Source of the DNA: a virus
DNA: 64,000 nucleotides
Strand: one strand, 5' to 3'
UHGV virus genome: UHGV-0073881
In this document: positions 3,422-27,040 of the stretch, piece after piece
How positions within the stretch are numbered: the first letter of the stretch is position 1
Layout of the letters: the number at the start of each line of letters is the position of its first letter
Made by a program: the position numbers and the translations under genes
Notes under the pieces: model-generated
What the model saw: the letters and a program-made list of their open reading frames with translations, nothing else
Database searches by the model: none
Told to the model about the DNA's origin: nothing

Positions 3422-3487
3422 AGTACTTTACAGGGGGCTTAAAAGTTGATACCTTAAGCCCCAGATAAAGAGCTTTACCAAATCAAT
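3421..3487 (+). repeat. conserved intergenic cassette type A (hairpin GGGGCTTAA/TTAAGCCCC)
   Basis: same flanking arms AGTACTTTACA ... CCCCAGATAAAGAGCTTTACC. Confidence 0.55.
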
Positions 3488-3507
3488 CCTAAACTGGAGA
3501 TTCTAAA

Positions 3508-4065
3508 ATGAAATGCTTTCACGGTACTACTCAAGAAAACTTTTTAAACCTCATCAATGGCGGCGAAAAACCTACAGGTGCTTGGAATTGCTCTGATATG
3601 GATGGTTATTTTTACGTATACCCTGTCAGTAAGTTCTGCGACGTAGAAGAGATGGACGAAGAACAAATCACAAATGAAGGGTTGCGCAATGCTCTTGATA
3701 GTGCTACAATCACAGCAGCTATCCAAATGAAAACTCAAAATATTGTTATCTTAGAACTTGAAATTCCAGAAGATGAGTTACAAGATGATTGGTCTTGTGA
3801 GAATATGAGTGACATCGCAAGCTTTACAGAGCACTTTGATAAAGATTGGGTTAAAAAGGTTTATACAACTGAATTCAATGCAATGTATTCACCGTTTTTT
3901 GTTCCTAACTTACAAAATCGTAATTTGGGATATATTGATGAAAAGCTTGAAGAGGTTGCAACATTCATCCAAAATGCCGATGATAGCTCAATCATCTATT
4001 GCAATATGCTGGACGCAATGCAAGAAAGCTTAACAGAAAGCGTTTTAAGCGACGTTTTAGCGTAA
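3508..4065 (+). CDS. hypothetical acidic early protein (185 aa)
   Basis: ORF track; conserved leader. Confidence 0.6.
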   Translation: MKCFHGTTQENFLNLINGGEKPTGAWNCSDMDGYFYVYPVSKFCDVEEMDEEQITNEGLRNALDSATITAAIQMKTQNIVILELEIPEDELQDDWSCENMSDIASFTEHFDKDWVKKVYTTEFNAMYSPFFVPNLQNRNLGYIDEKLEEVATFIQNADDSSIIYCNMLDAMQESLTESVLSDVLA

Positions 4066-4635: not shown

Positions 4636-4977
4636 ATGGCATACGTAACAATTATCACTGATAAAGAAAACTCTTCTTGGTCCACACAAGTAAGCGATAA
4701 AATGTCGCCTATGCAATGCCTCAAATACTTTGAGCAATGGAACAGGGGGGAAGATGTAAGCCCTTTCCAAGTAATGCAGGTTGTACATGTTGACAATGAC
4801 GGCAACAAAACTACCCTTAACACTGAATACTATGCTACACGTTTTGAGACTCGCAAAGAAGCTATGCGGGAACTAAGAGAAAAGGGCTATAGTCACATTG
4901 CCGCTTTGATTTGGTCTGATTTGCTTAAAAAACAAGCATTAACCTACGTCAAGCCTGAAAAAATCTTTATAAACTAA
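4636..4977 (+). CDS. hypothetical early protein (113 aa)
   Basis: ORF track; conserved leader. Confidence 0.6.
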   Translation: MAYVTIITDKENSSWSTQVSDKMSPMQCLKYFEQWNRGEDVSPFQVMQVVHVDNDGNKTTLNTEYYATRFETRKEAMRELREKGYSHIAALIWSDLLKKQALTYVKPEKIFIN

Positions 4978-5199
4978 TCAACAACTTACAAAATTCTTTG
5001 AAAAAACTGTTGACATTGCCCCTTGACAATAGTACATTTGTTCGAGGGGGTTTATCTAAAGGGATTCACTTAAAAGATTCTTTATAGATAAGCGAAAAAG
5101 TACTTGCAATCAGATTTCAAAACAAGTAAATTACTAAGCAACGGGGAGGGGATGACCTTCCCCACTAAGTAAAGTCCTTAAACTAGGAGATTCTAAAAA

Positions 5200-7417: not shown

Positions 7418-7654
7418 TCACTCTTCAGTCTTCTTCTCATCAGACTTTTTAGTTTTCTTATCAACTTTCTTAGGCTTCTCTTCAACCTTAGCTTCTGGTT
7501 CATTTTGAGTTGCCTGAATAGCAATGTCCAGAAGTTTTGCCAAGTCTGATTTAATCACCGTAACAGGTTGCTCATTGTAGTAGCTCTTGTCAAGGTGCTC
7601 TTTCAGTTCATTAAGAGAGCTAAAGCCGAATGGCTGGATAGGTGTCTTAATCAT
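7418..7654 (-). CDS. hypothetical protein with K/E-rich C-terminus (78 aa)
   Basis: ORF track; preferred over overlapping 7282-7524. Confidence 0.5.
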   Translation of the reverse strand: MIKTPIQPFGFSSLNELKEHLDKSYYNEQPVTVIKSDLAKLLDIAIQATQNEPEAKVEEKPKKVDKKTKKSDEKKTEE

Positions 7655-7728
7655 TCATTACTCCTTATAAGCATCTTCCAAAATGTGTTTATTAATCATC
7701 TCTGCAATTGCATAACGAATACAGATAA

Positions 7729-14454: not shown

Positions 14455-15870
14455 ATGAGCGAATTATTTGACCACTCAAACCTTCATCAAGGTCGTACTG
14501 AAAATGGTGCTGTAAACCACACCTCTTCAATGTCAGCCTCGGTAGACTTCTACAAAGCTGCTGGCTCTAGCCGCAACTACGTAGAGAAACTTCCAAATCT
14601 TTTCTACAAAGCTTTACGGGAAGATATTGATGTTGCTGTACGAATCCTGCTTCATATGCGAGATGCACGAGAAGGTATGGGTGAGCGTAAAGCGTTCAGA
14701 ACTGTTTTGACTGAATCCATCAAAAGCAACATCCTAGACTCTTTCCAAGTTCTACGTATCATGGAAAAGATTTCTGAACTAGGCCGTTATGATGACTTTA
14801 AAATCTTCGTAGGTACTCGATACGAAACAGATGCTTTCAAACAACTTGAAGCAGCACTGTTAGACCCTAACACTGCACAGTTAGCTGCAAAGTGGTTGCC
14901 AAGGGTTAAGCGTCGTCATATGAACTTTGTAAACCGCTTCTGTAAGTTTGCAAAGCTAAGTCAGAAAGAGTACCGACTGTTACTGTCAGCCTTGTCTGAT
15001 ACGGTTGAGCAGAAGATTTCTGCAAATGCTTTTGGAGAGATTGATTACAGTAAAATCCCTTCACTGGCTGCTGCACGTTACCAGAAGCTTTTCGGTCGTA
15101 AAGATGGTGAGCGTTACAAAGCATACATTGAAGCTCTTACTAAAGGTGAGACCAAGATTAATGCTGGTGCAGTTTACCCATACGATGTGATTAAGTCAGT
15201 AAATTACGGAAACGCTACAGTTGCCAATGAACAATGGAAAGCTTTATCAAACTGGATGGCAGATGGTGAAAACATTCTCTGCATGACAGACGTATCAAGC
15301 TCTATGACTTGGGAAAGACACGGTGCAGTTACTGCTTTAGATATTGGTATGTCTCTTGCATTATACGTCGCAGAACGCAACACAGGTTGTTTTAAAGATG
15401 AGTTAATGGTTTACTCCAGCAGACCTCACTTTATTACACTGAGTGGAGATTTAGCACAACGTAAGCGTCAGGTAATGTCTCATGTTGAGTATGGTTCAAC
15501 TAACCTTCAAGCAGCATTTGACAGAATTCTTGAAATTGGTGTTAAAAATGGCTTGACACAAGAAGCTATGCCAAGTAAGCTTATTATCTTCTCTGATATG
15601 GAATTCAATCAGGTTGATGGTGCAAATGGTCTTACTAACTTTGAAGCAATTCAGAGTAAGTACAAAAAAGCTGGATATGAGATGCCACAACTGGTATTCT
15701 GGTACTTAGCTGACCGTAACGGTAATTGCGAAGTATCTGTAAAGGATAACGGAGTAGCAATGGTTTCAGGTTTCTCTCCAGCCACCTTAAAAGCTTTGCT
15801 TGGTGGTGAGAAGTTTGACCCTATCAGCGTAATGCTCAAAGCAGTAATGATTGAACGCTACGATTGGTAA
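14455..15870 (+). CDS. vWA-domain protein with Ro60/TROVE-like architecture (471 aa)
   Basis: C-terminal vWA with MIDAS motif DVSSSM, GSTN and IIFSDMEF segments; order and spacing resemble the Ro60 C-terminal half; N-terminal 270 aa helical domain unassigned. Confidence 0.7.
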   Translation: MSELFDHSNLHQGRTENGAVNHTSSMSASVDFYKAAGSSRNYVEKLPNLFYKALREDIDVAVRILLHMRDAREGMGERKAFRTVLTESIKSNILDSFQVLRIMEKISELGRYDDFKIFVGTRYETDAFKQLEAALLDPNTAQLAAKWLPRVKRRHMNFVNRFCKFAKLSQKEYRLLLSALSDTVEQKISANAFGEIDYSKIPSLAAARYQKLFGRKDGERYKAYIEALTKGETKINAGAVYPYDVIKSVNYGNATVANEQWKALSNWMADGENILCMTDVSSSMTWERHGAVTALDIGMSLALYVAERNTGCFKDELMVYSSRPHFITLSGDLAQRKRQVMSHVEYGSTNLQAAFDRILEIGVKNGLTQEAMPSKLIIFSDMEFNQVDGANGLTNFEAIQSKYKKAGYEMPQLVFWYLADRNGNCEVSVKDNGVAMVSGFSPATLKALLGGEKFDPISVMLKAVMIERYDW

Positions 15871-15888: not shown

Positions 15889-15917
15889 TTGACAAAGTGT
15901 TTAATACCCTTTAATAT
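15889..15917 (+). promoter_or_regulatory. sigma70-like promoter upstream of tRNA array (TTGACA-N17-TAATAT)
   Basis: -35 TTGACA 15889-15894, 17-nt spacer, -10 TAATAT 15912-15917; inside a hairpin AGGGTATT/AATACCCT. Confidence 0.5.
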
Positions 15918-15978: not shown

Positions 15979-16008
15979 TTGACAAACACTAAAAAATAGT
16001 GTTATAGT
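15979..16008 (+). promoter_or_regulatory. sigma70-like promoter upstream of tRNA array (TTGACA-N17-TTATAG)
   Basis: -35 TTGACA 15979-15984, -10 TTATAGT at 16002-16008, about 28 nt before first tRNA. Confidence 0.5.
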
Positions 16009-16035: not shown

Positions 16036-16112
16036 CTCTGTTTAGCTCAGTTTGGTAGAGCGTTCCGTTTGGGGCGGTAAGGCCAGAGGTTCAAGTCCTC
16101 TAACAGAGACCA
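16036..16112 (+). tRNA. tRNA-Pro (anticodon TGG), isotype tentative
   Basis: acceptor CTCTGTT/AACAGAG, D-stem GCTC/GAGC, T-arm AGAGG-TTCAAGT-CCTCT, anticodon loop TTTGGGG, CCA encoded. Confidence 0.7.
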
Positions 16113-16119
16113 AATTAAT

Positions 16120-16194
16120 GTCGTAGAAGGCAAATGGTTAGCCACCTGACCTTCAATCAGTTGCTCGCGGGTTCGAATCCCGTCTACGACTCCA
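16120..16194 (+). tRNA. tRNA, anticodon TTC (Glu?), isotype uncertain
   Basis: acceptor GTCGTAG/CTACGAC, T-arm GCGGG-TTCGAAT-CCCGT, CCA encoded; anticodon loop CCTTCAA has C at position 33. Confidence 0.6.
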
Positions 16195-16200
16195 AATTTG

Positions 16201-16269
16201 ACAGAAGACCAAATACAGCAAACAACTTTTACTTTTCGCGCATAGAAAACATAAAAAGCTTGGTCTGGT
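16201..16269 (+). repeat. tRNA-array spacer module A (ACAGAAGACC ... ACAGCAA ... GGTCTGGT)
   Basis: conserved 5-prime ACAGAAGACC and 3-prime GGTCTGGT ends with AT-rich core; 4 copies in array. Confidence 0.6.
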
Positions 16270-16279
16270 CATTAAGAAT

Positions 16280-16356
16280 TGCGGGTATAGAGAAAGGGCG
16301 TCTCACATGTCTCATTAGCATGGTATCGGTAGGTTCGACTCCTGCACCCGCCTCCA
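16280..16356 (+). tRNA. tRNA-Met-like (anticodon CAT)
   Basis: acceptor TGCGGGT/ACCCGCC (1:72 mismatch), T-arm GTAGG-TTCGACT-CCTGC, loop CTCATTA, CCA encoded; weak D-stem. Confidence 0.6.
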
Positions 16357-16361
16357 AATTT

Positions 16362-16425
16362 ACAGAAGACCGTTTACAGCAATTCAAACAATTTTATCGG
16401 AAAATTAAAATGAATACGGTCTGGT
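16362..16425 (+). repeat. tRNA-array spacer module B
   Basis: ACAGAAGACCGTTTACAGCAA ... ACGGTCTGGT. Confidence 0.6.
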
Positions 16426-16437
16426 AATGTTAAACAT

Positions 16438-16514
16438 GGTTAGGAAGCACATAAGGCATGTGCGGTCGGCTGTTAACCGAATGGCACAGGGTTCGAATCC
16501 CTGACTAACCGCCA
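16438..16514 (+). tRNA. tRNA-Asn (anticodon GTT)
   Basis: acceptor GGTTAGG/ACTAACC, D-stem GCAC/GTGC, T-arm CAGGG-TTCGAAT-CCCTG, loop CTGTTAA, CCA encoded. Confidence 0.75.
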
Positions 16515-16524
16515 AAATTTAAAT

Positions 16525-16612
16525 GCGTCGTTATCCCGTAGATGGAAGCGGTGGTGACTGTAAATCACTTGTCATTACGACTCGGTAGGTTCGACTCCTT
16601 CACGGCGCACCA
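16525..16612 (+). tRNA. tRNA-Tyr (anticodon GTA), class II with long variable arm
   Basis: 88 nt; acceptor GCGTCGT/ACGGCGC, anticodon stem GGTGA/TCACT loop CTGTAAA, T-loop TTCGACT, CCA encoded. Confidence 0.7.
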
Positions 16613-16618
16613 AATAAA

Positions 16619-16696
16619 GGTTATGTAGTTTAATCTGGTTAAAATACCTCCCTGTCACGGAGGAAGATGTGGGTTCGAATCCCATCGTAACCGCCA
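16619..16696 (+). tRNA. tRNA-Asp (anticodon GTC)
   Basis: acceptor GGTTATG/CGTAACC, anticodon stem CCTCC/GGAGG loop CTGTCAC, T-arm GTGGG-TTCGAAT-CCCAT, CCA encoded. Confidence 0.75.
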
Positions 16697-16754
16697 ATTT
16701 TGAGAAGGGCTTTTTAGCCCCTCCCTTAAAGAGTTCTTGCGAGTATTCTTTAAA

Positions 16755-16835
16755 GGAGCAGAAGACCAAATTCAGCAAGCAACAAAAATATTTCAAGCCA
16801 ATTAATTTGAAAAATTTAAAACTTGGTCTGGTTCC
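16755..16835 (+). repeat. tRNA-array spacer module C
   Basis: GCAGAAGACCAAATTCAGCAA ... CTTGGTCTGGT. Confidence 0.55.
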
Positions 16836-16844
16836 AACAAATTT

Positions 16845-16969
16845 ACAGAAGACCGTTTACAGCAAGTTAAACAATCTAATTCTCTATGAAAGAAAGGGCG
16901 AAGGTTCGATTCCTTCACACGTTACGGCGTGTTGGTGTAATGGCAGCACTTAAGATGATACGGTCTGGT
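16845..16969 (+). repeat. tRNA-array spacer module D, carrying a tRNA-like T-arm and acceptor-like hairpin
   Basis: ACAGAAGACCGTTTACAGCAA ... GAAGG-TTCGATT-CCTTC (16900-16916), ACACG-TTACGG-CGTGT hairpin (16917-16932) ... ACGGTCTGGT; no full cloverleaf. Confidence 0.55.
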
Positions 16970-17118
16970 AATCCTCTTTGCAGTGACTTATGGAGCTAAT
17001 ATATCGTCCCATGAGTGCCGATGAATCTCTTGAGCATGATTCTAGATTAGCTTACTAAGAGATGACTCTACAAACCCTTTAGCAAGGTTTGCGTAGGTTA
17101 CTGCAAAGATGATTTAAT

Positions 17119-17194
17119 GGAAGTGTAGCAGAATGGTGATGCGGCAGACTTTTAATCTGACAGGCGATGGGTTCGAATCCCTCCACTTCTACCA
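17119..17194 (+). tRNA. tRNA-Lys (anticodon TTT)
   Basis: acceptor GGAAGTG/CACTTCT, anticodon loop CTTTTAA, T-loop TTCGAAT, CCA encoded. Confidence 0.7.
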
Positions 17195-17279
17195 AATTCG
17201 CCCTTAATTGAAGAATACCTACTTCGCGGCTGGAAACACCCACGAAAAATCAATTCTTCTCCAAAGGGCAACTTATTAC

Positions 17280-17356
17280 GGTTCAGTCGCAGATAAGGTA
17301 ATGCAAGGGTTTCATAAGCCCTATGAATGTGGGTTCGACTCCCATCTGAACCTCCA
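17280..17356 (+). tRNA. tRNA with anticodon CAT (Met or Ile2)
   Basis: acceptor GGTTCAG/CTGAACC, anticodon stem AGGGT/GCCCT loop TTCATAA, T-arm GTGGG-TTCGACT-CCCAT, CCA encoded. Confidence 0.75.
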
Positions 17357-17358
17357 AT

Positions 17359-17433
17359 TGTGGGTTAGCATAAATGGTAATGCAAACGGCTGATAACCGT
17401 TAGAAGAGGGTTCGATACCCTCACCTACAACCA
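17359..17433 (+). tRNA. tRNA-Ile (anticodon GAT)
   Basis: acceptor TGTGGGT/ACCTACA, D-stem GCA/TGC, anticodon stem AACGG/CCGTT loop CTGATAA, T-arm GAGGG-TTCGATA-CCCTC, CCA encoded. Confidence 0.75.
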
Positions 17434-17448
17434 ATTCCAATAAAGTTG

Positions 17449-17477
17449 TTGACATTAACATGTGACCACTTTATAGT
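17449..17477 (+). promoter_or_regulatory. strong sigma70-like promoter inside tRNA array (TTGACA-N17-TATAGT)
   Basis: -35 TTGACA 17449-17454, 17-nt spacer, -10 TATAGT 17472-17477; followed by about 320 nt with no ORF and no canonical tRNA. Confidence 0.55.
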
Positions 17478-17801
17478 AACTAAAATACTTCATAATATGT
17501 ATAATTCAAACACCAATACATGAGCGTTAGACGTAACACAATGTGGGGAAATTTGTTGTACATATTCTGAATAGTTTTCGTTAGTGTAGCGTCTATTTTG
17601 CAAACTTAAAAATAAATGCAAACGATAATGTTTTTCTGGCAGTAGCTTAATAGGCTAAACACCAGTGAGGTCTTCCAATCCCTCATCAAAGAATTTGGCG
17701 TACTAGCCCACGGTATGATTAATAAAGTGGGCGACATTCTAAAGGGTATCCCTTATGGGGCTTGGCTTAAATGCAATGAGTACCCTTTAAAATGTTAATT
17801 A

Positions 17802-17883
17802 CGGGGCGTATCTCAGCGGTCTTCTAAACCGCCGTTAACCGAGTAAGTGGAGTATGCGGGTTCGAGTCCTGCCGCCTCGACCA
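17802..17883 (+). tRNA. atypical tRNA-like gene (Arg TCT-like anticodon arm), possible pseudogene
   Basis: acceptor CGGGGCG/CGCCTCG, T-arm GCGGG-TTCGAGT-CCTGC, CCA encoded; stem GCGGT/ACCGC with loop CTTCTAA but no canonical D-arm and a 23-nt segment before the T-arm. Confidence 0.4.
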
Positions 17884-17898
17884 ATTTTGGATGAAATC

Positions 17899-18246
17899 AT
17901 GAAGACTTGTATTAGGTGCAAACTTAGCAAGGATGAAAATGATTTCTACATGAAAGATGGTAGGAGAACTCATTCATACTGTAAAAAGTGTGTTAATGAG
18001 CAAACCATAGAAAGACAAAGAGCACTTAAACTTTCAGCTGTTGAGTACAAAGGTGGGGTTTGTCATGATTGTGGTAAAAGGTATCATCCAGCAGTGTATG
18101 ACTTCCATCATTTGAATCCTTCAGAGAAAGATTTTAACATTGGTCATAGAAAAAGTCTTAAGTTCTCTCAGGAGCTAAAGAACGAACTTGACAAATGTGT
18201 TTTGCTATGTTCAAATTGCCATAGGGTAAGACATGCAAAGTATTAG
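17899..18246 (+). CDS. HNH endonuclease (zinc-finger plus HNH) embedded in tRNA array
   Basis: CxxC...CxxC and FHHLNPSEKD...LLCSNCHRVRH motifs; ORF track 17854 start lies inside the tRNA, so start moved to ATG 17899. Confidence 0.8.
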   Translation: MKTCIRCKLSKDENDFYMKDGRRTHSYCKKCVNEQTIERQRALKLSAVEYKGGVCHDCGKRYHPAVYDFHHLNPSEKDFNIGHRKSLKFSQELKNELDKCVLLCSNCHRVRHAKY

Positions 18247-18383
18247 TTAGCAGATTGCTTAGACGACCTTAACGGGTCTCCTGTAAGGAGGTGGTCTGTA
18301 TCTCATGTTTCCAGAGCATGTAAAAATATTCTGAGAAGGGGCTTTACAGTGTTGTGATAATACGGTAAGCTTCGAATTATAAT

Positions 18384-18466
18384 ATGGGACGATGTTAAGA
18401 CTCTAAGGCATGAGCAACGGCTTCCAACACCGTTTCAAAGGGGTTCAACTCCTCCGTCCCATGCCA
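18384..18466 (+). tRNA. tRNA, possibly Trp (anticodon CCA); atypical
   Basis: acceptor ATGGGAC/GTCCCAT, T-loop TTCAACT, CCA encoded; stem AACGG/CCGTT around TTCCAAC; extra nucleotides between acceptor and D region. Confidence 0.45.
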
Positions 18467-18478
18467 AAGTCTTATTAG

Positions 18479-18567
18479 GGGTAGGTAGCGGCTAATGGTA
18501 GCCAAACTGTCTTGAAAACAGTTGCCACTGTAGAGATACGGTGAGGGTTCGACTCCTTTACTTACCG
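18479..18567 (+). tRNA. tRNA-Ser (anticodon TGA), class II
   Basis: acceptor GGTAGGT/ACTTACC, D-stem GGC/GCC, anticodon stem ACTGT/ACAGT loop CTTGAAA, long variable arm, T-loop TTCGACT; CCA not encoded. Confidence 0.7.
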
Positions 18568-18817
18568 CCTAATAAGATTTAAAGCCGCGCTTCGTTCGGA
18601 TGTTGCGTTAGGTTTCACTTCGTGTATTGTCGTACACGATGTTGAGAAAGCACCTAGTAGGTGTCACGGAGAAGAGATAGCATCAAGCTCTCCAAAGGTT
18701 CTAGTCACCGGATTAAACAAGACTATGCAAAGACTGATTAGGTCTTTTTAGATAACTTCTGAGGCAAACTATACCATTGTTGCTTTGGGTCTTGGAAGTT
18801 CTCTACAAAGATTTAAT

Positions 18818-18894
18818 GCACCTATAGCCCAATTGGAAGAGGCAGCAGACTTAGAATCTGTTCAGTGTGAGTTCGACTCTCTCTAGGTGTACCA
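18818..18894 (+). tRNA. tRNA with anticodon TAG (Leu-type anticodon, class I length)
   Basis: acceptor GCACCTA/TAGGTGT, D-arm CCCAATTGGAAGAGG, anticodon stem GCAGA/TCTGT loop CTTAGAA, T-loop TTCGACT, CCA encoded. Confidence 0.6.
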
Positions 18895-18901
18895 AATTAA
18901 T

Positions 18902-18977
18902 GCAGGTGTAGCAAAATGGTTATGCGGCTGACTCTTAATCAGTAAGACGATGGGTTCAATTCCCTCCACCTGTACCA
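18902..18977 (+). tRNA. tRNA with anticodon CTT (Lys?)
   Basis: acceptor GCAGGTG/CACCTGT, anticodon stem GCTGA/TCAGT loop CTCTTAA, T-loop TTCAATT, CCA encoded. Confidence 0.6.
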
Positions 18978-18983
18978 AACATT

Positions 18984-19059
18984 GGGGATGTAGTTTACAT
19001 GGTTAAAACATAAGTTTTGCAAACTTAAGTACAGGGTTCAATTCCATGCTTCTCCACCA
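18984..19059 (+). tRNA. tRNA-Ala (anticodon TGC)
   Basis: acceptor GGGGATG/CTTCTCC with G3:U70 identity pair, anticodon stem TAAGT/ACTTA loop TTTGCAA, T-loop TTCAATT, CCA encoded. Confidence 0.75.
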
Positions 19060-19065
19060 ATTAGT

Positions 19066-19140
19066 GCATCCATAGTTTAAACGGGAAAATTACAGTCTTC
19101 CAAACTGAGGTTGAGGGTTCGATTCCCTCTGGATGCTCCA
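19066..19140 (+). tRNA. tRNA-Gly (anticodon TCC)
   Basis: acceptor GCATCCA/TGGATGC, T-arm GAGGG-TTCGATT-CCCTC, anticodon loop CTTCCAA, CCA encoded. Confidence 0.75.
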
Positions 19141-19146
19141 ATTCAT

Positions 19147-19222
19147 GCTCCTATCGTATAACTGGCTATTACGGTTGTCTTGTAAGCAACTTATCAGGGT
19201 TCGAATCCTTGTGGGAGCACCA
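19147..19222 (+). tRNA. tRNA-Thr (anticodon TGT)
   Basis: acceptor GCTCCTA/TGGGAGC, D-stem CGTA/TACG, anticodon stem GTTGT/GCAAC loop CTTGTAA, T-arm CAGGG-TTCGAAT-CCTTG, CCA encoded. Confidence 0.7.
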
Positions 19223-19316
19223 ATTTGAGGTCAAGTGAAAGACCGCTTGAGTCAACTGAAGACCGTAACAAATTCCACGGAGTTGAGTTAGCGGCACAAC
19301 TTCAGACCTCTTTAAA

Positions 19317-19391
19317 GCTCGCTTAGTTTATATGGTAAAGCCCCATCCTTACAAGTTGGTGAAGAAGGTTCAAGTCCTTCAGCGAGTACCA
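19317..19391 (+). tRNA. tRNA-Val (anticodon TAC)
   Basis: acceptor GCTCGCT/AGCGAGT, T-arm GAAGG-TTCAAGT-CCTTC, anticodon loop CTTACAA, CCA encoded. Confidence 0.7.
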
Positions 19392-19392
19392 A

Positions 19393-19470
19393 GTTCCAGT
19401 ATCCCAATTGGCAGAGGATGCAAGCTCAAACCTTGTATTAGTGACGGTTCGAATCCGTCTTGGAACACCA
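19393..19470 (+). tRNA. tRNA with anticodon CAA (Leu-type anticodon, class I length)
   Basis: acceptor GTTCCAG/TTGGAAC, D-stem ATCC/GGAT with loop CAATTGGCAGA, anticodon stem GCAAG/CTTGT loop CTCAAAC, T-arm GACGG-TTCGAAT-CCGTC, CCA encoded. Confidence 0.65.
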
Positions 19471-19487
19471 AATTTTAGGAGATTCCT

Positions 19488-19700
19488 ATGAAGCCTTATG
19501 GTAGACACGGTAAAGTTGAAATTGCAAGTTGTGGTTGCTGTGCTTCTCACGATGGTGAAGAAGATTACTACAAGTGGCGTACAGACCATCGTAGACGCTT
19601 TCTCAGAAGAGATAAGAAGAAAGCTAGACAGGAATCTCGAAAAGATATTGCAGAATTAGTTCAAATGGATAGAGCAGCAACCTACGAAGTTGTTAGTTAG
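19488..19700 (+). CDS. hypothetical small basic protein (70 aa); 3-prime end overlaps tRNA-Arg
   Basis: ORF track; RBS AGGAG 7 nt before ATG; last 50 nt overlap the tRNA at 19650. Confidence 0.35.
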   Translation: MKPYGRHGKVEIASCGCCASHDGEEDYYKWRTDHRRRFLRRDKKKARQESRKDIAELVQMDRAATYEVVS

Positions 19701-19723
19701 GGGTTCGAATCCCTTATTCTGCA
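19650..19723 (+). tRNA. tRNA-Arg (anticodon ACG)
   Basis: acceptor GCAGAAT/ATTCTGC, D-stem GTTC/GAGC, anticodon stem GCAAC/GTTGT loop CTACGAA, T-arm AGGGG-TTCGAAT-CCCTT; CCA not encoded. Confidence 0.75.
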
Positions 19724-19744
19724 CAAATTTTAGAAGGTAATTAT

Positions 19745-19972
19745 ATGCGTAAACTCATTATTGAAAGGCATAAAGATGCTGACAAGATTGAAACAACACA
19801 AGTTGGGGACACTGACTTCATTCTTGTAGGTTGGAAATGTGACCCAATAGCAGCTATGAAGGTTGTTCATGGTTTTGCAGGAATTGAATTTAATCAAATC
19901 ATATTTGAAACGCTATTACCAGAAAATCAGGATACGTGTAATAACGCATATATCCTGACAAGAGTTCGTTAG
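19745..19972 (+). CDS. hypothetical protein (75 aa) between tRNA genes
   Basis: ORF track; ATG start; stop abuts tRNA-Gln. Confidence 0.4.
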   Translation: MRKLIIERHKDADKIETTQVGDTDFILVGWKCDPIAAMKVVHGFAGIEFNQIIFETLLPENQDTCNNAYILTRVR

Positions 19973-20046
19973 GGGATTAGTTTACAAGGTTAAAACCTCG
20001 GTCTTTGAAATCGAAGAAGTTGGTTCAATTCCAACATCCCCCGCCA
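19971..20046 (+). tRNA. tRNA-Gln (anticodon TTG)
   Basis: acceptor AGGGGAT/ATCCCCC (1:72 mismatch), anticodon stem TCGGT/ATCGA loop CTTTGAA, T-arm GTTGG-TTCAATT-CCAAC, CCA encoded. Confidence 0.7.
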
Positions 20047-20048
20047 AT

Positions 20049-20127
20049 GCTCCATTACTCCAATTGGCAGAGAGGCCAGACTTAAAATCTGTGTTATGTA
20101 TCGGTTCGAATCCGATATGGAGTACCA
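20049..20127 (+). tRNA. tRNA with anticodon TAA (Leu-type anticodon, class I length)
   Basis: acceptor GCTCCAT/ATGGAGT, D-arm CCAATTGGCAGAG, anticodon loop CTTAAAA, T-arm ATCGG-TTCGAAT-CCGAT, CCA encoded. Confidence 0.65.
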
Positions 20128-20133
20128 AATATT

Positions 20134-20209
20134 AGCAGTGTAGCATAACTGGCAATGCTCCAGCCTCTGAAGCTGAAAGATTAAGGTTCAAATCCTTACA
20201 CTGCTGCCA
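20134..20209 (+). tRNA. tRNA with anticodon CTG (Gln)
   Basis: acceptor AGCAGTG/CACTGCT, D-stem GCAT/ATGC, anticodon loop CTCTGAA, T-arm TTAAG-GTTCAAAT-CCTTA, CCA encoded. Confidence 0.65.
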
Positions 20210-20240
20210 CTTCTAAGGGTTCTTACGAGAGTCCTTAAAT

Positions 20241-20317
20241 GTGGCCTTATCATAAATGGATAATGACCCATGCTGTGAACATGGTCTATACGGGTTCGAT
20301 TCCCGTAGGTCACCCCA
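20241..20317 (+). tRNA. tRNA-His (anticodon GTG)
   Basis: acceptor GTGGCCT/AGGTCAC with C73, D-stem TCAT/ATGA, anticodon stem CCATG/CATGG loop CTGTGAA, T-arm ACGGG-TTCGATT-CCCGT, CCA encoded. Confidence 0.75.
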
Positions 20318-20324
20318 ATTTTAA

Positions 20325-20401
20325 TAGCTCAATTAGCTTATATGGTTAAAGCGCGTGTCTGAAAAACATGAGAACAGGGTTCAAATCCCGATGGGCTACC
20401 A
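20325..20401 (+). tRNA. tRNA-Phe (anticodon GAA), irregular acceptor/D junction
   Basis: anticodon stem CGTGT/ACATG loop CTGAAAA, D-stem GCTT/AAGC, acceptor TAGCTCA/TGGGCTA, T-loop TTCAAAT, CCA at 20399-20401. Confidence 0.6.
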
Positions 20402-20417
20402 ACTTTATAGGTGCATA

Positions 20418-21152
20418 ATGAAAGAGATGACAGGACAAGGTAAAGAGATTTTCAATCTCCTTAAATCCGGTAACGGGTTCTCTAACCCTCTTATTACTGG
20501 TGCAGCAGTTCTTGGTGGTACAGTTGCTGCTTCTCAGTCATTAATCACTTCAATTAGTTCTGTATCAGACCCAGCTACCCAGCAAATCCTTATTGCTGCT
20601 GGCTTGACAACTGCCTTACTAAGCAGCTTTACAACAAGCCTTGGTAGCACCACTTCAACGACAACTACTTTAACTGACTATGGACAGAAGTCTGTAGATG
20701 AGTTTTCACAGCGTATGCAGGTAGCCAAAGGATACTCTAATGTTATGGGAGCAGCGGGTGAACAAGTTGGATGTACACCGTTTAGTGGAATCATGGGAGT
20801 TGCTACTGAATACGGTAACAAGGCTATGGATTTGATTAACACCTCCATAGATGCCGTAAACAGCGTTCTAAGCGACTTACAGGATGCAATTGATAAAGGA
20901 CTAGCAACCATCTCTGACCTCGCTACACAAGCTGTTACAGCGATTAATGAAGGTATGGCAAAGATTACTGCCTACGCTAATGAAGTGGCTCAGATGATTG
21001 CAGACGAAGCAGCAATGATTGCAGAGTATCTAAAAACCAATATTAATGGTTTCCTTGCAAATGTTTTACCAGATTGGTTTAACGATGATTGTAAGACGGG
21101 TGTAATTGATACAATTGCAACTCCAGAGATGAAAGAAGCTCTAAACAAATAA
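20418..21152 (+). CDS. hypothetical Ala/Ser/Thr-rich protein embedded in tRNA operon (about 244 aa)
   Basis: ORF track 20355-21152; start moved to first ATG after tRNA-Phe (MKEMTGQ) with AGGTG RBS. Confidence 0.6.
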   Translation: MKEMTGQGKEIFNLLKSGNGFSNPLITGAAVLGGTVAASQSLITSISSVSDPATQQILIAAGLTTALLSSFTTSLGSTTSTTTTLTDYGQKSVDEFSQRMQVAKGYSNVMGAAGEQVGCTPFSGIMGVATEYGNKAMDLINTSIDAVNSVLSDLQDAIDKGLATISDLATQAVTAINEGMAKITAYANEVAQMIADEAAMIAEYLKTNINGFLANVLPDWFNDDCKTGVIDTIATPEMKEALNK

Positions 21153-21155
21153 TTT

Positions 21156-21248
21156 GGAAGATTAACCCTAAAAGGTAAGGGAGCAGTTTGCTAAACTGCC
21201 AGTAGCTGAGAAATTGGTGTACCAGTTCAAGTCTGGTATCTTCCTCCA
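21156..21248 (+). tRNA. tRNA-Ser (anticodon GCT), class II
   Basis: 93 nt; acceptor GGAAGAT/ATCTTCC, D-stem CCC/GGG, anticodon stem GCAGT/ACTGC loop TTGCTAA, long variable arm, T-arm ACCAG-TTCAAGT-CTGGT, CCA encoded. Confidence 0.75.
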
Positions 21249-21254
21249 AATTTT

Positions 21255-21330
21255 GCATTGGTGTCAGAAATGGATATGTACCTGTCTGCAAAACAGGTTT
21301 ATGAGGGTTCGAGTCCCTTCCAATGCTCCA
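21255..21330 (+). tRNA. tRNA-Cys (anticodon GCA)
   Basis: acceptor GCATTGG/CCAATGC, anticodon stem CCTGT/ACAGG loop CTGCAAA, T-arm GAGGG-TTCGAGT-CCCTT, CCA encoded. Confidence 0.8.
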
Positions 21331-24859: not shown

Positions 24860-25359
24860 TGGCAGAAGTTATCTCTATTTCCAATGCTACGAGAGTGCAT
24901 TCTTATAGAGGTGTCTTAGTCATTACTGACAATTTAACTGTGGAGGCTGGCTCAAGGGTCAGCCTTACAGGGTTTGTTAGTGATGGTGGAACCTCGAATG
25001 TTTTCACAATTTGCAGGTTACTTGATGCTCTAATGAGCGGAAAATCGTTTATTTCACAAAATTGTTACGAAATTGTTAAAATTCCATTTGACAGTTCATG
25101 CCTTTTGGGTGTAAAGTTATATAACTGTGAGAATAAACGTATTAACGTTAACAGCGTTGAAGCTGCTTTCATTACCATTGACACAGCATTTCAATCCCCT
25201 ATGACAGTAAACAAAGAGACTAACAGACTTGAATACATTTTTTCACAAAATGATTACAAAGTACTTGTCAAAGGTAAAGTTTATGATATGATTGTAAATG
25301 TGGTGGATGAATCTGGTAACCATTCAACAGCCCTTAAACAGAAAGTAAGGTTTAATTAA
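24859..25359 (+). CDS. hypothetical head-module protein (166 aa)
   Basis: ORF track; ATGA start-stop overlap with portal. Confidence 0.55.
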   Translation: MAEVISISNATRVHSYRGVLVITDNLTVEAGSRVSLTGFVSDGGTSNVFTICRLLDALMSGKSFISQNCYEIVKIPFDSSCLLGVKLYNCENKRINVNSVEAAFITIDTAFQSPMTVNKETNRLEYIFSQNDYKVLVKGKVYDMIVNVVDESGNHSTALKQKVRFN

Positions 25360-25691
25360 TGGGAACATTAACTATTGATGGTAAGAATAAAATCCTAGCC
25401 ACACTAACCCCGACGACAATTGTTTTACACAATGTAGACCCAACGGCAGACCCTACAGCAAACAAGGTTACTCAGCCAGTGGCTATTCTATTTTCAGAAC
25501 CTAACAACGGGCTAATTGCCTCAGAAGATGCAGTTAATATTACTGTACCAGCTTCTGCTACGGTTTCTCATTATAGCCTGTGGGATGACAATAACAAGTG
25601 CATGGCAACGGGTGCTTTAAGTAGTCCTCAATTCTTTGCTGAAGAAGGTATTTATGTTATCTCTTCAGTATCTGTGGATTTAAACAAATAG
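25359..25691 (+). CDS. hypothetical head-module protein (110 aa)
   Basis: ORF track; coupled to upstream ORF. Confidence 0.55.
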   Translation: MGTLTIDGKNKILATLTPTTIVLHNVDPTADPTANKVTQPVAILFSEPNNGLIASEDAVNITVPASATVSHYSLWDDNNKCMATGALSSPQFFAEEGIYVISSVSVDLNK

Positions 25692-25702: not shown

Positions 25703-27040
25703 ATGAGTTCGAATATCTTCAGACTTGCTGATAGATTATTCAACCAGCCTTTACTAGCCACAGAATCACTAGCTCACTCAGCAGCGACTTATGTTAATAA
25801 CCGTCTGTTAGGTGAAGTTCAAGCAGCAGTAAACTTTGACAAACCTAAAGGTGAAGCAAGAAGTCTTTTAAAAGTAAAAGATGACATTGCTATTATCCCT
25901 ATTATGGGTGGCCTTACACATCGTATGACCTTTATGGATGCTATGTGTACTGGTGGTCTAAGTTCTTATGAAGGTTTACGCAGAGGCTTCGACGAAGCTT
26001 TAGCAGATGAATCTATCAATACTATCTTGCTGCATATTGATTCAGGTGGTGGTGAAGCGTCAGGTTGTTTTGAGTTGGCACGTCATATCATGGCCTCAAG
26101 AGGCAAAAAGAAAATTATTGCTTATGTAGATGAGTTCGCATGTTCCGCTGCATATGCTCTTGCATCTTCTGCTGACGAAGTTATTGCTTCTCCAGATGCT
26201 GATGTTGGTTCAATTGGTGTAATTATGGTTCACCAAGAATTAACTAAGGCATTTGAAAAGAATGGCGTAACAATTAACGTTATTAAAGCTGGAGAATTTA
26301 AAGGTATGGGTTCCCCATTCCAAACTCTCTCAGAAGAAAGTAAAGCAAGACTTCAGAAACGTATTGACGACACCTACTCAACCTTTACAGGTTTTGTTGC
26401 AGAATCTCGTAATATCTCTGAAGAAGCTGTAAAGAATACTGAGGCGAATGTTTATTCTGCTCAGGAAGCTCTTGAACTTGGTTTAATTAATTCAATCATG
26501 TCTCAAGATGATTTCTTAAATTACTTACAAGGTTCTGAAGAAGCTCCTGTAAGTTTAAACGTTAACAATTCAGGTGAAGAAATGACTGAACAAGAAAAGC
26601 AAGAACTAGAAGCTTTGCGTCTTCAGGTTGCTCAAATGAAAGCTAAAGAACAAGAAGCTGCTCTGTCAGATTTAACTGGCAAGATTTCTGCTTCTGCCGA
26701 AGCTTTTGGGTTTGATGCAAAAGAAGCTGCAACAGCTATTTTAGGTGCTGGTCTTGATAACCCTCTGAGTGTTCTGTTTATGAATGCTATGGAAGGTGCT
26801 AACCAGAAACTTAATGAAACTATCGCGTCCCATGCTTCTGCCATGTCTGAGAAGGACACAGAAATCACTAAGCTGAAAGAAACTGCTGGTGCTGTTCTGG
26901 AACACTCAAACGCAATGGAAGAACTTGGCAATGACGGTGAAGCAGAACTTGAAGTTGAAAAACCAGCTTCCGAAGCAAATGCTGAACCTGACCAACGCAA
27001 ACTGGCTCTCCAGAATGCTTTGAAATCTCTTATCAAATAA
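25703..27040 (+). CDS. prohead protease (S49/ClpP-like) fused to scaffold-like C-terminal domain
   Basis: N-terminal half has ClpP/SppA-like segments (LLHIDSGGGEASG, AYALASSADE); C-terminal 150 aa Ala/Glu-rich coiled-coil-like. Confidence 0.7.
   Translation: MSSNIFRLADRLFNQPLLATESLAHSAATYVNNRLLGEVQAAVNFDKPKGEARSLLKVKDDIAIIPIMGGLTHRMTFMDAMCTGGLSSYEGLRRGFDEALADESINTILLHIDSGGGEASGCFELARHIMASRGKKKIIAYVDEFACSAAYALASSADEVIASPDADVGSIGVIMVHQELTKAFEKNGVTINVIKAGEFKGMGSPFQTLSEESKARLQKRIDDTYSTFTGFVAESRNISEEAVKNTEANVYSAQEALELGLINSIMSQDDFLNYLQGSEEAPVSLNVNNSGEEMTEQEKQELEALRLQVAQMKAKEQEAALSDLTGKISASAEAFGFDAKEAATAILGAGLDNPLSVLFMNAMEGANQKLNETIASHASAMSEKDTEITKLKETAGAVLEHSNAMEELGNDGEAELEVEKPASEANAEPDQRKLALQNALKSLIK

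Follow-up and report, generated by a model that had tools for sequence, protein, structure and literature searches.

A circularly permuted tRNA-like RNA downstream of a Ro60-like protein gene in a phage tRNA array

The question posed by this locus is why a perfect T-arm should be found outside any tRNA gene. The window, the whole stretch of 64,000 nucleotides that was analysed, contains 21 perfect T-arms (0.34 expected in shuffles), 20 of which lie inside tRNAs, and the sole orphan belongs to a segment within a 26-gene tRNA array that we call module D (16843-16971, + strand). A sequence-only reading had taken this orphan, together with a closed hairpin on its 3' side, for a permuted or truncated tRNA mimic without a cloverleaf, of a kind known as a domain of bacterial Y RNAs. 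That description stands in part: the sequence elements it named are present, but a D-arm and an anticodon-like arm were missed.

A cloverleaf permuted at position 26/27

Module D has at its core the whole of a class-I tRNA cloverleaf, in a circular permutation that breaks it at position 26/27, in which an anticodon-like arm is followed by a 4-nt variable loop, the T arm, the acceptor stem, U8 and the D arm. The chain enters at position 27 and exits at position 26, and P1, a stem of 7 bp, holds its two ends together. Outside P1, a short helix P0 pairs UUAC (16843-46) with GUAA (16968-71) and is followed on the 5' side by the bulge AGA. The P1 strands AGACCGU (16850-16856) and ACGGUCU (16960-16966) account for the brackets already noticed from the letters, ACAGAAGACC at 16845-54 and GGTCTGGT at 16963-70, between which the 7-bp stem AGACCGT/ACGGTCT is formed, and the 3' strand runs on into G-GUAA, giving a conserved CUG(U/G)UA tail. 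On the inner side of P1 lies the single-stranded UUA-CAGCAA-G (16857-16866), the proposed recognition site of a Ro60-like protein, with CAGCAA in the same position as the GNCGAA/CGAA motif of classical Y RNAs. Next comes the anticodon-arm-like V hairpin AUUCU-CUAUGAA-AGAAA (16879-16895), which has 4 bp plus an A.A mismatch and a 7-nt loop with C32 U33 ... A37 A38, and which is aligned as the anticodon arm by the Rfam tRNA model; together with the variable loop GGGC directly 3' of it (16896-99) it refutes the statement that the upstream sequence lacks an anticodon arm. The T-arm GAAGG-UUCGAUU-CCUUC is found as described, at 16900-16916 with U54 U55 C56 ... A58 all present, and so is the closed hairpin, at 16917-16932 (ACACG(T)-TACG-(G)CGTGT in the DNA). 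This acceptor stem-loop, AS (ACACGU-UACG-GCGUGU), has in the window copy 6 bp including a U.G pair, a UACG tetraloop as cap and no CCA. It is likewise true that no 5' acceptor strand lies upstream, but none is missing, since the 3' strand of the AS hairpin is itself the acceptor 5' strand. Directly after this hairpin, U8-G9 and the D-arm GUGU-AAUGGCA-GCAC follow at 16933-16949 (A14, A15, G18 G19, A21 and U13.G22), overlooked when the element was said to lack a cloverleaf. The element as originally delimited ended on the first base of this D-arm. Because all four arms are present, module D is permuted and not truncated, and since its acceptor is sealed by a tetraloop and carries no CCA it is unchargeable.

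The nucleotides that mediate tertiary interactions in tRNA are retained as well, namely U8, A14, G18G19, A21, U54U55C56 and A58, and further G53-C61, G10-C25/G45 and U13.G22/G46, while at 15-48 the window copy has A-C and the relatives REP6 and L017 have A-U. ARAGORN finds no tRNA in module D in its native order, whereas moving the acceptor-5'/D-arm segment to the front results in a 74-nt tRNA call in 7/7 tested family members, with differing 'anticodons'. No Rfam family reaches its gathering score over module D in the window, and in 14 related loci only tRNA and GOLLD do so. Two other pairings were considered and rejected. An anticodon stem formed by the linkers AUCU (16874-77) and AGAU (16953-56) pairs in Ounavirinae but has no counterpart in the group of locus L014, and the V hairpin is therefore read as the anticodon arm; a pairing of UAACAG with CUGUUA was dropped, as it is not conserved. 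The thermodynamic fold of the AT-rich module is no better than that of shuffles (z = 0.03).

Conservation in relatives, on which the tRNA-mimic reading could be checked, is extensive, as module D is kept in 246 phage records. In an alignment of 26 distinct sequences pairing holds in 96.7% of the cells and 17 of the 27 pairs show changes on both sides, giving a covariation score of 0.62 for the permuted fold against at most 0.13 for slid controls and at most 0.21 for shuffles. P1 is 100% paired in these 26 sequences and compensatory in 5/6 pairs, the covariance model (R1) spanning 6 of its 7 bp, and occurs as AGACCG/CGGTCT, AGGTTC/GAACCT, AGAATCG/CGATTCT and AAGATTG/CAATCTT. Covariation is furthermore seen in 2/5 pairs of the V hairpin, in 3/5 pairs of the T-arm, which is 100% paired, and in 7/7 modelled pairs of AS, variants of which are ACTCGGC/GTCGAGT in Felix-O1 types (a 7-bp stem with a 4-nt loop), ACCCTTC/GAAGGGT in Mooglevirus and CAGTGAG/TTCACTG in L014. 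The alignment (A7) was made to fit the model, and the pattern that gathered its members required the T-loop and D-arm, so that the conservation of these two arms is inflated; indeed the D-arm is invariant in A7 because the pattern demanded it. In loci collected by way of the protein the D stem varies yet stays paired (GCTC/GAGC, GTCT/GGAC, GTCT/AGAC, GTGC/GCAC). The CAGCAA motif is invariant in A7 and in a second alignment, A4. Module D scores 115.9 bits with R1, but its sequence is in the seed of that model. The G.U pairs of module D are compatible with the + strand only, and readings as an integron attC-like site or a promoter were dropped because strand bias, G.U pairs and covariation indicate RNA. 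We can conclude that every variable helix of the permuted fold is backed by covariation and that module D is a conserved structured RNA on the + strand.

CAGCAA modules and the Ro60-like protein gene

This non-coding RNA of about 130 bases is found 1 kb downstream of a gene for a 471-residue Ro60-like ring protein (14455-15870, + strand), the proposed partner, from which it is separated by 973 nt. The protein matches Pfam DUF2828 (3.9e-27) and DUF7788 (4.7e-43) as well as PHROG 850 'RNA-binding protein' (4e-175), a family with members in 710 of about 50,700 phage records, and the MIDAS motif DVSxSM of its vWA domain is invariant. It does not reach the threshold of Pfam TROVE, and PDB sequence searches by phmmer and with a profile returned nothing relevant; the kinship with Ro60 is visible by fold comparison and hhalign only. 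An AlphaFold2 model from a 45-sequence alignment (pLDDT 90) replaced a discarded single-sequence model (pLDDT 41.6), and its best 10 Foldseek matches in the PDB are all Ro60/Rsr/TROVE structures, among them 2i91 (E 2.8e-8, TMq 0.66) and the phage phiLo Ro60 (9l5y/9kop); the matches to Ro60 structures are full-length, with TMq 0.53-0.66. With phage TROVE proteins hhalign gives a probability of 91.5% and an E-value of 8.5e-7 over the C-terminal TROVE and vWA regions. As judged from the predicted model, the protein has the Ro60 fold, a HEAT-repeat ring with a C-terminal vWA domain bearing a MIDAS. It is 84% identical to gp130 of phage Bas63, a Ro60-like protein encoded upstream of tRNA genes that counters the Ppl defence (PMC11482910), and mycobacteriophage homologues are annotated as 'Ro-like RNA binding protein'.

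Module D is not alone, since the window carries four modules with P1 and CAGCAA, A-D (16206-16971), all on the + strand. Mini module A (16206-16270; P1 AGACCAA/TTGGTCT with ATA-CAGCAA), found by a strict motif scan, has an AT-rich loop without tRNA-like insert, scores 27.5 bits with R1 (E 1.5e-4) and belongs to the repeat families D8/D19. Mini module B (16367-16426; P1 AGACCGT/ACGGTCT with TTA-CAGCAA; R1 39.9 bits, E 1.3e-7) corresponds to module D minus the tRNA-like insert of about 65 nt and is 91% identical to the 5' part of D (D8), and mini module C (16763-16833; P1 AGACCAA/TTGGTCT with ATT-CAGCAA) is a paralogue of A.

In Ounavirinae the Ro60-like gene lies about 1 kb upstream of the element on the same strand. 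Among 65 IMG/VR loci collected via the protein at 39-45% identity, 54 occurrences of the strict P1+CAGCAA pattern are on the gene strand and 3 on the opposite one. The pattern is found in 35 of these loci, often abutting the gene; its absence from the other 30 reflects either limited sensitivity or true absence. The unconstrained combination of CAGCAA with any 7-bp stem is a weak test, with 31% on the gene strand and 17.5% on the opposite strand where chance gives about 19%, and it is the strict pattern that is informative. CAGCAA is found beside the protein gene in enterobacterial, Vibrio-type, Listeria, Campylobacter and Mycobacterium phage loci, with three tandem modules directly upstream of the gene in Listeria Pecentumvirus and two upstream of it in Campylobacter phage CPX. 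Phage loci with a TROVE-type Ro60 have the same closed-acceptor tRNA-like RNA, but with CGAA/CGGA-type motifs, which occur in TROVE-type loci only, and not CAGCAA. The P1+CAGCAA module thus co-travels with a Ro60-fold protein gene across very distant phages.

The P1 hairpins could instead be processing or punctuation signals of the tRNA precursor, in which case the insert would be incidental and without any tie to the Ro60-like protein. Nuclease entry sites, transcript stabilisers or attenuators are the candidate roles. The notion stems from the observations that the hairpins are simple, that each of the four window modules has tRNA genes on both sides, with the 3' end of a tRNA immediately preceding three of the modules, and that about 24 of 60 protein-anchored loci have same-strand tRNAs nearby. 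We nevertheless find it improbable, since the modules follow the protein gene and not the tRNAs and many loci in which a module abuts the gene are tRNA-free within 6 kb (L149, L156, L165, L167, L191 and L193). In Mycobacterium phage Nicholas, likewise, three modules lie directly downstream of the Ro-like gene, the middle one with a T arm, closed acceptor and D arm, and the sole annotated tRNA of the examined region is 2.7 kb upstream. Furthermore, a nuclease site needs no CAGCAA that is invariant from phages of Actinobacteria to those of Enterobacteria. It is on the contrary likely that modules A-D are four phage Y-RNA-like non-coding RNAs of which D is the tRNA-like member, and, as far as sequence comparison goes, module D is most likely the Y RNA partner of the Ro60-like protein. 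For Bas63, the idea that Y RNAs might be hidden among the annotated tRNAs was put forward by the authors as speculation only (PMC11482910); the Y RNA partner in this phage group, earlier guessed at and never located, would most likely be the candidate described here.

Kinship with Y RNAs and with tRNA genes

In YrlA RNAs the V hairpin, T arm, closed acceptor stem-loop and D arm follow each other in this order within a terminal stem, the gene lies at most 4 kb from rsr on the same strand, and the RNA is recognised by RNase P, TruB and DusA (Chen et al. 2014, PMC4201824). This arm order, the ARAGORN calls on the un-permuted sequence and the nearby Ro60-fold gene all support the suggestion, made from the letters alone, that module D is a domain of the Y RNA kind. 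Like YrlA (RF02553), which is found in Salmonella Typhimurium, M. smegmatis and some phages and has Rsr/Ro60 as partner, module D is modular, combines a terminal stem bearing a conserved 5'-side motif with a tRNA-like domain of the same arm order, retains the nucleotides of the tRNA tertiary interactions and lies a few kb from a Ro60-type gene on the same strand; some of its relatives even have a 7-bp acceptor with NCCA, as does the RNase-P-cleaved YrlA of M. smegmatis. The distance and strand used by Chen et al. 2014 (at most 4 kb, same strand) also hold here, although 'orthologue' is a generous term for a DUF2828/DUF7788 partner.

The presumed protein-binding module differs, consisting here of the 7-bp P1, NUN-CAGCAA and the CUG(U/G)UA tail and in YrlA of GNCGAAN0-1G, the presumed Ro60 contact, which is absent from module D, where UUACAGCAAG is found at the equivalent place. 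The partner clade is likewise different, being DUF2828/DUF7788 here and Pfam TROVE/vWA_Ro60 for YrlA. Module D furthermore has an intact anticodon arm with the exit at 26/27, whereas in the Rfam YrlA consensus the anticodon stem opens into the Ro-binding stem, and unlike YrlA it is found inside a tRNA array beside three insert-less mini modules. The curated Rfam model RF02553 (gathering score 69 bits) has no match at E<=10 in 16690-17125, and among the relatives it gives sub-threshold scores that cover the tRNA-like core only (L140:5770-5880, 38.2 bits; L210:5048-5156, 37.9 bits). The model is narrow, as it also misses the TROVE-adjacent phage RNAs in L007 and L009. Module D is accordingly classed as a Y-RNA-like RNA of the YrlA type, the presumed protein-binding module of which is a different one.

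A similar division of labour is found in Yrn1/RYPER of Deinococcus radiodurans and in the Yrl1/Yrl2-phiRo60 system of Thermus phage phiLo, where an internal-loop motif of the stem binds the ring and a second module engages PNPase, reminiscent of the effector proposed below for module D, and the phiLo Yrl RNAs are, as here, phage-encoded next to a Ro60 gene. The phiLo Ro60 binds the phage Yrl RNAs as well as host PNPase (PMC12135203). Unlike module D, the Yrn1 and phiLo RNAs use a CGAA-type motif, and the effector module of Yrn1 is only partly tRNA-like.

A decaying tRNA pseudogene, or a deletion relic of two neighbouring tRNA genes that sits passively in the array without function, might also resemble module D. 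The location among 26 tRNA genes would fit, and the Rfam tRNA model (RF00005) gives 26.9 bits, just below its gathering score of 29, in an alignment with two acceptor mismatches and almost no D arm; one record labels the region as a 131-nt 'tRNA-Thr GGT', and an origin at a tRNA-tRNA junction is plausible, with some relatives keeping N73-CCA and a short spacer within the acceptor 'loop'. The missed canonical tRNA that the sequence-only reading named as its own refutation is not found by ARAGORN or Rfam. The acceptor of an ordinary tRNA, formed with upstream sequence (AGCAAGU/ACACGUU), is paired in 36.7% of cells against 35.4% in shuffles, and the upstream 'acceptor strand' is in fact the invariant CAGCAA motif. 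In addition, P1, V, T and AS are kept by compensatory changes among phages in which identity between the Ro60-like proteins is only about 40%, and the architecture recurs beside Ro60-type genes in unrelated phages. A relic is thus largely refuted by covariation, and we consider it very improbable.

Equally improbable is a genuine permuted or split tRNA, the acceptor loop of which would be opened by RNase P and 3' trimming and receive CCA to yield a decoding product, either in two pieces or as a ligated molecule comparable to those of the permuted tRNA genes of Cyanidioschyzon merolae. In its favour, no arm is lacking and the core tertiary nucleotides are retained, Mooglevirus (ACCCTTC-G-CCA-AACA-GAAGGGT) and several metagenomic relatives encode N73-CCA in the loop of a 7-bp acceptor, and YrlA of M. 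smegmatis is cut by RNase P and gains CCA in vivo (PMC4201824). The window acceptor, however, has 6 bp, a UACG cap and no CCA, the Felix-O1 type has 7 bp and a 4-nt loop, and the 'anticodon' varies between AUG, GGU, GUA, GGA and GAA, with a 6-nt loop in one relative. Furthermore, the break at 26/27 would remain unsealed. By eye a bulge-helix-bulge is not evident at the ends, where the P1/P0 junction has bulges of 3 nt on the 5' and 1 nt on the 3' side and does not resemble the 3-4-3 arrangement of such elements, and these phages are not known to have a splicing endonuclease. Permuted tRNA genes of C. merolae and other algae and archaea, and likewise two-piece tmRNA, do share with module D that the 3' part is encoded before the 5' part and that the acceptor strands are joined by a short linker. 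Precursors of permuted tRNAs are circularised at the bulge-helix-bulge, and the circle is then opened at the acceptor, which yields a normal molecule that can be charged. The window copy differs from these genes in its sealed acceptor without CCA, its unconserved 'anticodon' and its ends, which lie in a protein-associated stem.

Possible functions of the ribonucleoprotein

For modules A-D as Y-RNA-like RNAs we propose that the array is transcribed within the tRNA precursor from a promoter at about 15979-16008 and that the modules may be excised by tRNA-processing nucleases. This + strand site, a sigma-70-like TTGACA-18-TATAGT (11/12, with TG) shortly before the first tRNA, stems from a consensus scan that also gave a second promoter-like site at 15889-15917, and it is a lead only, the number of such sites not being above that in shuffles. 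The Ro60-like ring would bind P1 and CAGCAA in the way that Ro60 contacts Y RNAs through their stem and CGAA-type motif, and a bound module D would then display its tRNA-shaped 'effector' domain, the elbow of which is intact (G18G19-U55C56, U8-A14, U54-A58). This domain may attract, or serve as a decoy for, some factor by which tRNA shape is recognised, such as PNPase or another exoribonuclease, an enzyme of tRNA processing or repair, or a defence nuclease that targets tRNAs, and the ribonucleoprotein could thereby tune the part that the protein plays in RNA surveillance and counter-defence. Module D itself most likely arose when the 3' part of one tRNA gene was fused with the 5' part of the next one in the array.

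A use of tRNA shape in conflict with the host has parallels in other phage arrays, where, according to the works cited in PMC11482910, tRNAs evade tRNA-targeting defences by anticodon-loop mutations (van den Berg et al. 2023) and tRNA-Tyr of T5 acts against retron Ec78 (Azam et al. 2023). As far as they are described there, these tRNAs have in common with module D the phage array and a tRNA shape usable in such conflict, but they are functional and chargeable, whereas module D is unchargeable and tied to a Ro60-like protein. It should also be mentioned that gp130 alone, without phage RNA, rescues T7 from Ppl (PMC11482910), and the RNA is therefore dispensable for the anti-Ppl activity.

More tentatively, P1+CAGCAA might be the dedicated recognition element of the whole phage-specific PHROG 850 clade, from Felix-O1-like to Listeria, Campylobacter, Vibrio and Mycobacterium phages, defining very widespread, undescribed, modular phage Y RNAs of which the tRNA-shaped member serves in counter-defence. 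The inserts would then be interchangeable, some being full tRNA mimics that originated time and again at tRNA-tRNA junctions of phage tRNA arrays. Together with the Ro60-like protein, which is virion-associated and counters Ppl, the tRNA-shaped member would decoy, sense or tether those nucleases or repair enzymes of the host that recognise tRNA. As a whole this joint reading is conceivable, but we regard it as somewhat doubtful.

Phage Ro60-like proteins are emerging as counter-defence factors, as seen for Bas63 gp130 against Ppl and for phiLo Ro60 on PNPase, and no RNA partner had been identified before for the large DUF2828 clade. The exact candidate RNAs can now be named, four in the window and one in Bas63 (MZ501086:82772-82920), and CAGCAA with the 7-bp stem offers a simple conserved target for mutation, while the cloverleaf permuted at 26/27 offers a structural model. 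With candidates, motif and model at hand, three questions therefore become directly testable: whether these proteins function as ribonucleoproteins, what the long-unexplained tRNA-like domain of YrlA-type RNAs recruits, and how non-coding RNAs are born from tRNA arrays.

Such RNAs are routinely mis-annotated as small ORFs or odd tRNAs, the Bas63 counterpart being annotated as a minus-strand hypothetical CDS. That module D is a small protein-coding gene can practically be dismissed, since, although ORFs do overlap it (16886-16999, +, 37 aa; 16669-16953, +, 94 aa; 16802-16918, -, 38 aa) and several GenBank records annotate small hypothetical CDSs (bas63_0137, vse102_041), the annotated strand and frame disagree among records, close relatives differ in length by numbers of nucleotides not divisible by three (AS 16/18/22 nt, V loop 6/7, 3' linker 10-16) and the substitutions are compensatory within helices. 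A hugely abundant 'possible Y RNA' reported for Listeria phage CKA15 at 26,236-26,727, alongside two other abundant regions (PMC12282133), was set aside as expression evidence, that region being a ROOL RNA instead; the three CAGCAA modules of the same record are found at about 25,290-25,555, behind a promoter-like site of their own.

Architecture and conservation of the element

The element of about 130 bases designated module D is a real, conserved and structured RNA. The T-arm GAAGG-TTCGATT-CCTTC (16900-16916) and the hairpin ACACGT-TACG-GCGTGT (16917-16932) described in the sequence-only reading are present exactly where they were claimed, the sequences said to bracket them pair as a 7-bp terminal stem, P1 (AGACCGT, 16850-56, with ACGGTCT, 16960-66), and the T-arm is indeed an orphan, being the only one outside tRNAs among the 21 perfect T-arms in the window (chance expectation 0.34). 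ARAGORN finds no canonical tRNA at the element, and the Rfam tRNA model falls short of its gathering score of 29, arriving at 26.9 bits by taking AGCAAGU as the acceptor 5' strand with two mismatches and with almost no D arm. The same reading found neither a D-arm nor an anticodon arm upstream and missed two parts of the element. U8-G9 and a textbook D-arm, GUGU-AAUGGCA-GCAC (16933-16949, with A14, A15, G18G19 and A21 present), follow right after the hairpin; furthermore, a stem of five positions (four base pairs and an A.A) carrying the 7-nt loop CUAUGAA, with the anticodon-loop signature C32-U33...A37-A38, is found at 16879-16895 and is separated from the T-arm by the 4-nt variable loop GGGC. 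The 5' to 3' order of anticodon-like arm, variable loop, T arm, acceptor 3' strand, tetraloop, acceptor 5' strand, U8-G9, D arm and N26 is that of a class-I cloverleaf with no part missing, its ends moved to 26/27 by circular permutation and its acceptor end sealed, in the window copy by UACG. When the acceptor-5'/D-arm segment was placed ahead of the anticodon-like arm in silico (for the window copy also with CCA added and one loop pair borrowed), ARAGORN recognized a 74-nt tRNA in seven of seven family members, the "anticodons" of which are unrelated (AUG, GGU, GUA and GGA; that of the seventh, Michonne, was left undetermined by ARAGORN).

The element is found in 246 phage records at 73-97% identity, and when IMG/VR was scanned for an exact pattern (T-loop, 18-45 nt, D-arm), the closed-acceptor architecture turned up in many unrelated viral contigs. 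A covariance model was built from 18 of these sequences and 26 distinct sequences were aligned to it, giving 96.7% paired cells and changes on both sides in 17 of 27 pairs, with a covariation score of 0.62 as against at most 0.13 with slid partners and 0.21 in shuffles. Covariation extends to all acceptor pairs, five of six in P1, three of five in the T stem and two of five in the anticodon-like hairpin V. The D arm is invariant in this set because the collecting pattern demanded it, yet in loci collected through the neighbouring protein the D stem differs between sequences without losing its pairing (GCUC/GAGC, GUCU/GGAC, GUCU/AGAC, GUGC/GCAC). An ordinary tRNA acceptor pairing stands at chance level (36.7% versus 35.4%), and indels that are not multiples of three speak against the small ORFs annotated here in some records.

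Genomic setting and the repeated module

The window derives from a Felix-O1-like phage of the Ounavirinae, the closest records being Shigella phages ESh22/ESh21 (98% over the region). About 26 tRNA genes, all on one strand, occupy 16036-21330 (23 by ARAGORN, two by Rfam and a tRNA-Tyr by eye) and are followed by the large terminase gene; the element falls between tRNA-Asp (16619-16696) and tRNA-Lys (17119-17194). Several tRNA genes escaped ARAGORN, namely those at 16120-16191 (Rfam 53.7 bits) and 17802-17880 (31.7 bits) and, at 16526-16615, the tRNA-Tyr(GTA), which has a long variable arm and is annotated as tRNA-Tyr or "Pseudo-GTA" in relatives. A tRNA-like sequence at about 18386-18470 has a good 7-bp acceptor (TGGGACG/CGTCCCA) and a T-arm. 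Its D region is odd and its anticodon loop apparently has 9 nt, and it is called by neither ARAGORN nor Rfam.

The unit AG-N5 / N3-CAGCAA ... N5-CU / G(U/G)UA, that is P1 with its adjoining loop motif, occurs four times in the window, as modules A (16206-16270), B (16367-16426), C (16763-16833) and D (16850-16970), with a single loose match on the opposite strand in 64 kb. A and C are paralogous, as are B and D, D being B with a tRNA-like insert of about 65 nt, and the covariance model picks up B (39.9 bits) and A (27.5 bits) through the stem module alone. The arrangement A-tRNA-Met-B resembles C-D with a tRNA in between, and in Salmonella phage VSe102 (L001 527-751) module D follows directly after tRNA-Met, at the site of module B in the window, while the Asn/Tyr/Asp tRNAs and module C are absent. 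Such sequence arrangements make it appear that the tRNA array is rearranged through the repeated modules.

Directly 3' of the element, before tRNA-Lys, comes another structured stretch of about 145 nt (16970-17114, plus strand; MFE -50.4 kcal/mol, z = -4.65), whose long closing stem is maintained by compensatory changes across Ounavirinae (columns 8/151, 16/143 and 23/136 of alignment A8). Neither an Rfam match nor a CAGCAA motif is found in it; it may be another non-coding RNA, and some records annotate a minus-strand hypothetical CDS there.

Genomic coupling to a Ro60-like protein

Just upstream of the array, a plus-strand ORF of 471 aa (14455-15870) encodes a protein with Pfam DUF2828 and DUF7788, assigned to PHROG 850 "RNA-binding protein". 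Its AlphaFold2 model (pLDDT 90, from a 45-sequence alignment) retrieves Ro60/Rsr/TROVE structures as all of the best ten full-length Foldseek matches in the PDB, including Xenopus Ro60 2i91 (E 2.8e-8, TMq 0.66), Thermus phage phiLo Ro60 and D. radiodurans Rsr, and in a profile comparison the protein aligns with three phage TROVE proteins, MIDAS motifs included, at 91.5% probability (E 8.5e-7).

In Ounavirinae the element is preceded by this gene, on the same strand and at a distance of about 1 kb. Among 65 non-Ounavirinae IMG/VR loci collected through the protein (39-45% identity), every covariance-model match is on the gene strand and many directly adjoin the gene, and the strict pattern, present in 35 of the 65, gives 54 matches on the gene strand and 3 opposite. 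Listeria Pecentumvirus phages have three tandem modules immediately before the gene, Campylobacter phage CPX has two upstream of it, and in Mycobacterium phage Nicholas three come right after the gene for the "Ro-like RNA binding protein", the middle one with T and D arms and a closed acceptor of 9 bp. Phage loci with a classical TROVE/vWA_Ro60 protein (L007, L009, L089, L105 and L106) likewise have closed-acceptor tRNA-like RNAs, but with CGAA/CGGA-type motifs and no CAGCAA, so that two protein clades and two RNA motifs go with one common effector-domain design. The element is thus conserved as a permuted tRNA fold on a P1/CAGCAA module, coupled genomically and strand-specifically to a Ro60-fold protein, and is probably the RNA partner of that protein.

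Relation to YrlA and possible function

The bacterial Y RNA YrlA is defined by a 5' GNCGAAN0-1G motif, by V, T, AS (closed acceptor) and D stem-loops and by lying no more than 4 kb from rsr, on the strand of that gene; it is modified by TruB and DusA, and M. smegmatis YrlA, with a 7-bp acceptor, is cleaved by RNase P and gains CCA (Chen et al. 2014, PMC4201824). The window RNA has this architecture and position, which supports and sharpens the earlier idea of a Y-RNA-like tRNA mimic, but it lacks the GNCGAAN0-1G motif and falls short of the threshold of Rfam RF02553, a model that two relatives match at about 38 bits, in both cases through nothing but the tRNA-like core. No paper on the CAGCAA module, or on any RNA partner of DUF2828 proteins, was found in an incomplete coverage of the literature, and the window RNA is best described as an apparently new Y-RNA-like relative of YrlA.

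Many family members carry N73-CCA and a short spacer in the acceptor "loop" (L003 672-693, L007, L140 5369-5522 and 5743-5894, L160 and L176; in Michonne ACCCTTC-G-CCA-AACA-GAAGGGT), and the window and Felix-O1 copies have 4-nt loops without CCA. Since such a loop amounts to a tRNA 3' end fused to a tRNA 5' end, the sequences suggest that these RNAs arose from a tRNA-tRNA junction, and the CCA-bearing members may be opened by RNase P.

Bas63 gp130, a Ro60-like protein 84% identical to the ORF product and encoded directly upstream of tRNA genes, is reported to counter the Ppl defence in a study whose authors only speculated that Y RNAs might be hidden among the annotated tRNA genes (PhageMaP preprint, PMC11482910). 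The Bas63 counterpart of the element (82772-82920 of its record) has no tRNA annotation and is overlapped by a minus-strand hypothetical CDS. Because gp130 by itself also rescues T7 from Ppl (PMC11482910), the RNAs are less likely to be its active principle against Ppl than to gate, target or tether the protein for a different activity. The element would be transcribed with the tRNA array from promoter-like sites at 15889-15917 and 15979-16008, a possible start of the array transcript, and excised by tRNA-processing enzymes; the ring protein could then bind P1/CAGCAA, so displaying the tRNA-shaped module to a tRNA-recognising factor.

In Listeria phage CKA15 a homologous protein was detected in purified virions, the "non-coding" transcripts CKA15_059-061 make up as much as about two thirds of phage reads, and the three abundant upstream regions were suggested to be possible Y RNAs (PMC12282133). 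The most abundant, to which these transcripts belong (L209 1469-2020; OR088597 about 26,195-26,746), matches Rfam ROOL over its full length (90.1 bits, E 7e-18, slightly below the gathering score of 99.1), and the CAGCAA modules adjoin the gene behind a promoter-like site. Listeria phage LMTA-57 has a "tRNA-splicing ligase" gene, RtcB-type by name (L208 6808-8019), 1.3 kb downstream of its DUF2828 Ro60-like gene on the same strand, recalling the Salmonella rsr-yrlBA-rtcBA operon. A metagenomic phage tRNA array (L014) holds both a GOLLD RNA (3326-3789, Rfam 215.7 bits) and a CAGCAA-class tRNA-like RNA (4882-5020). Finally, elements following a normal tRNA in other viral contigs (L032 about 7597-7700, L073, L080, L109 and L081/L093/L102/L118) have an acceptor-5'-like strand and a perfect D-arm, with conserved sequences such as GATCCTGACAAGGATAC or AGGAAGTCCGAGACACCGAGAGG in place of the anticodon arm.
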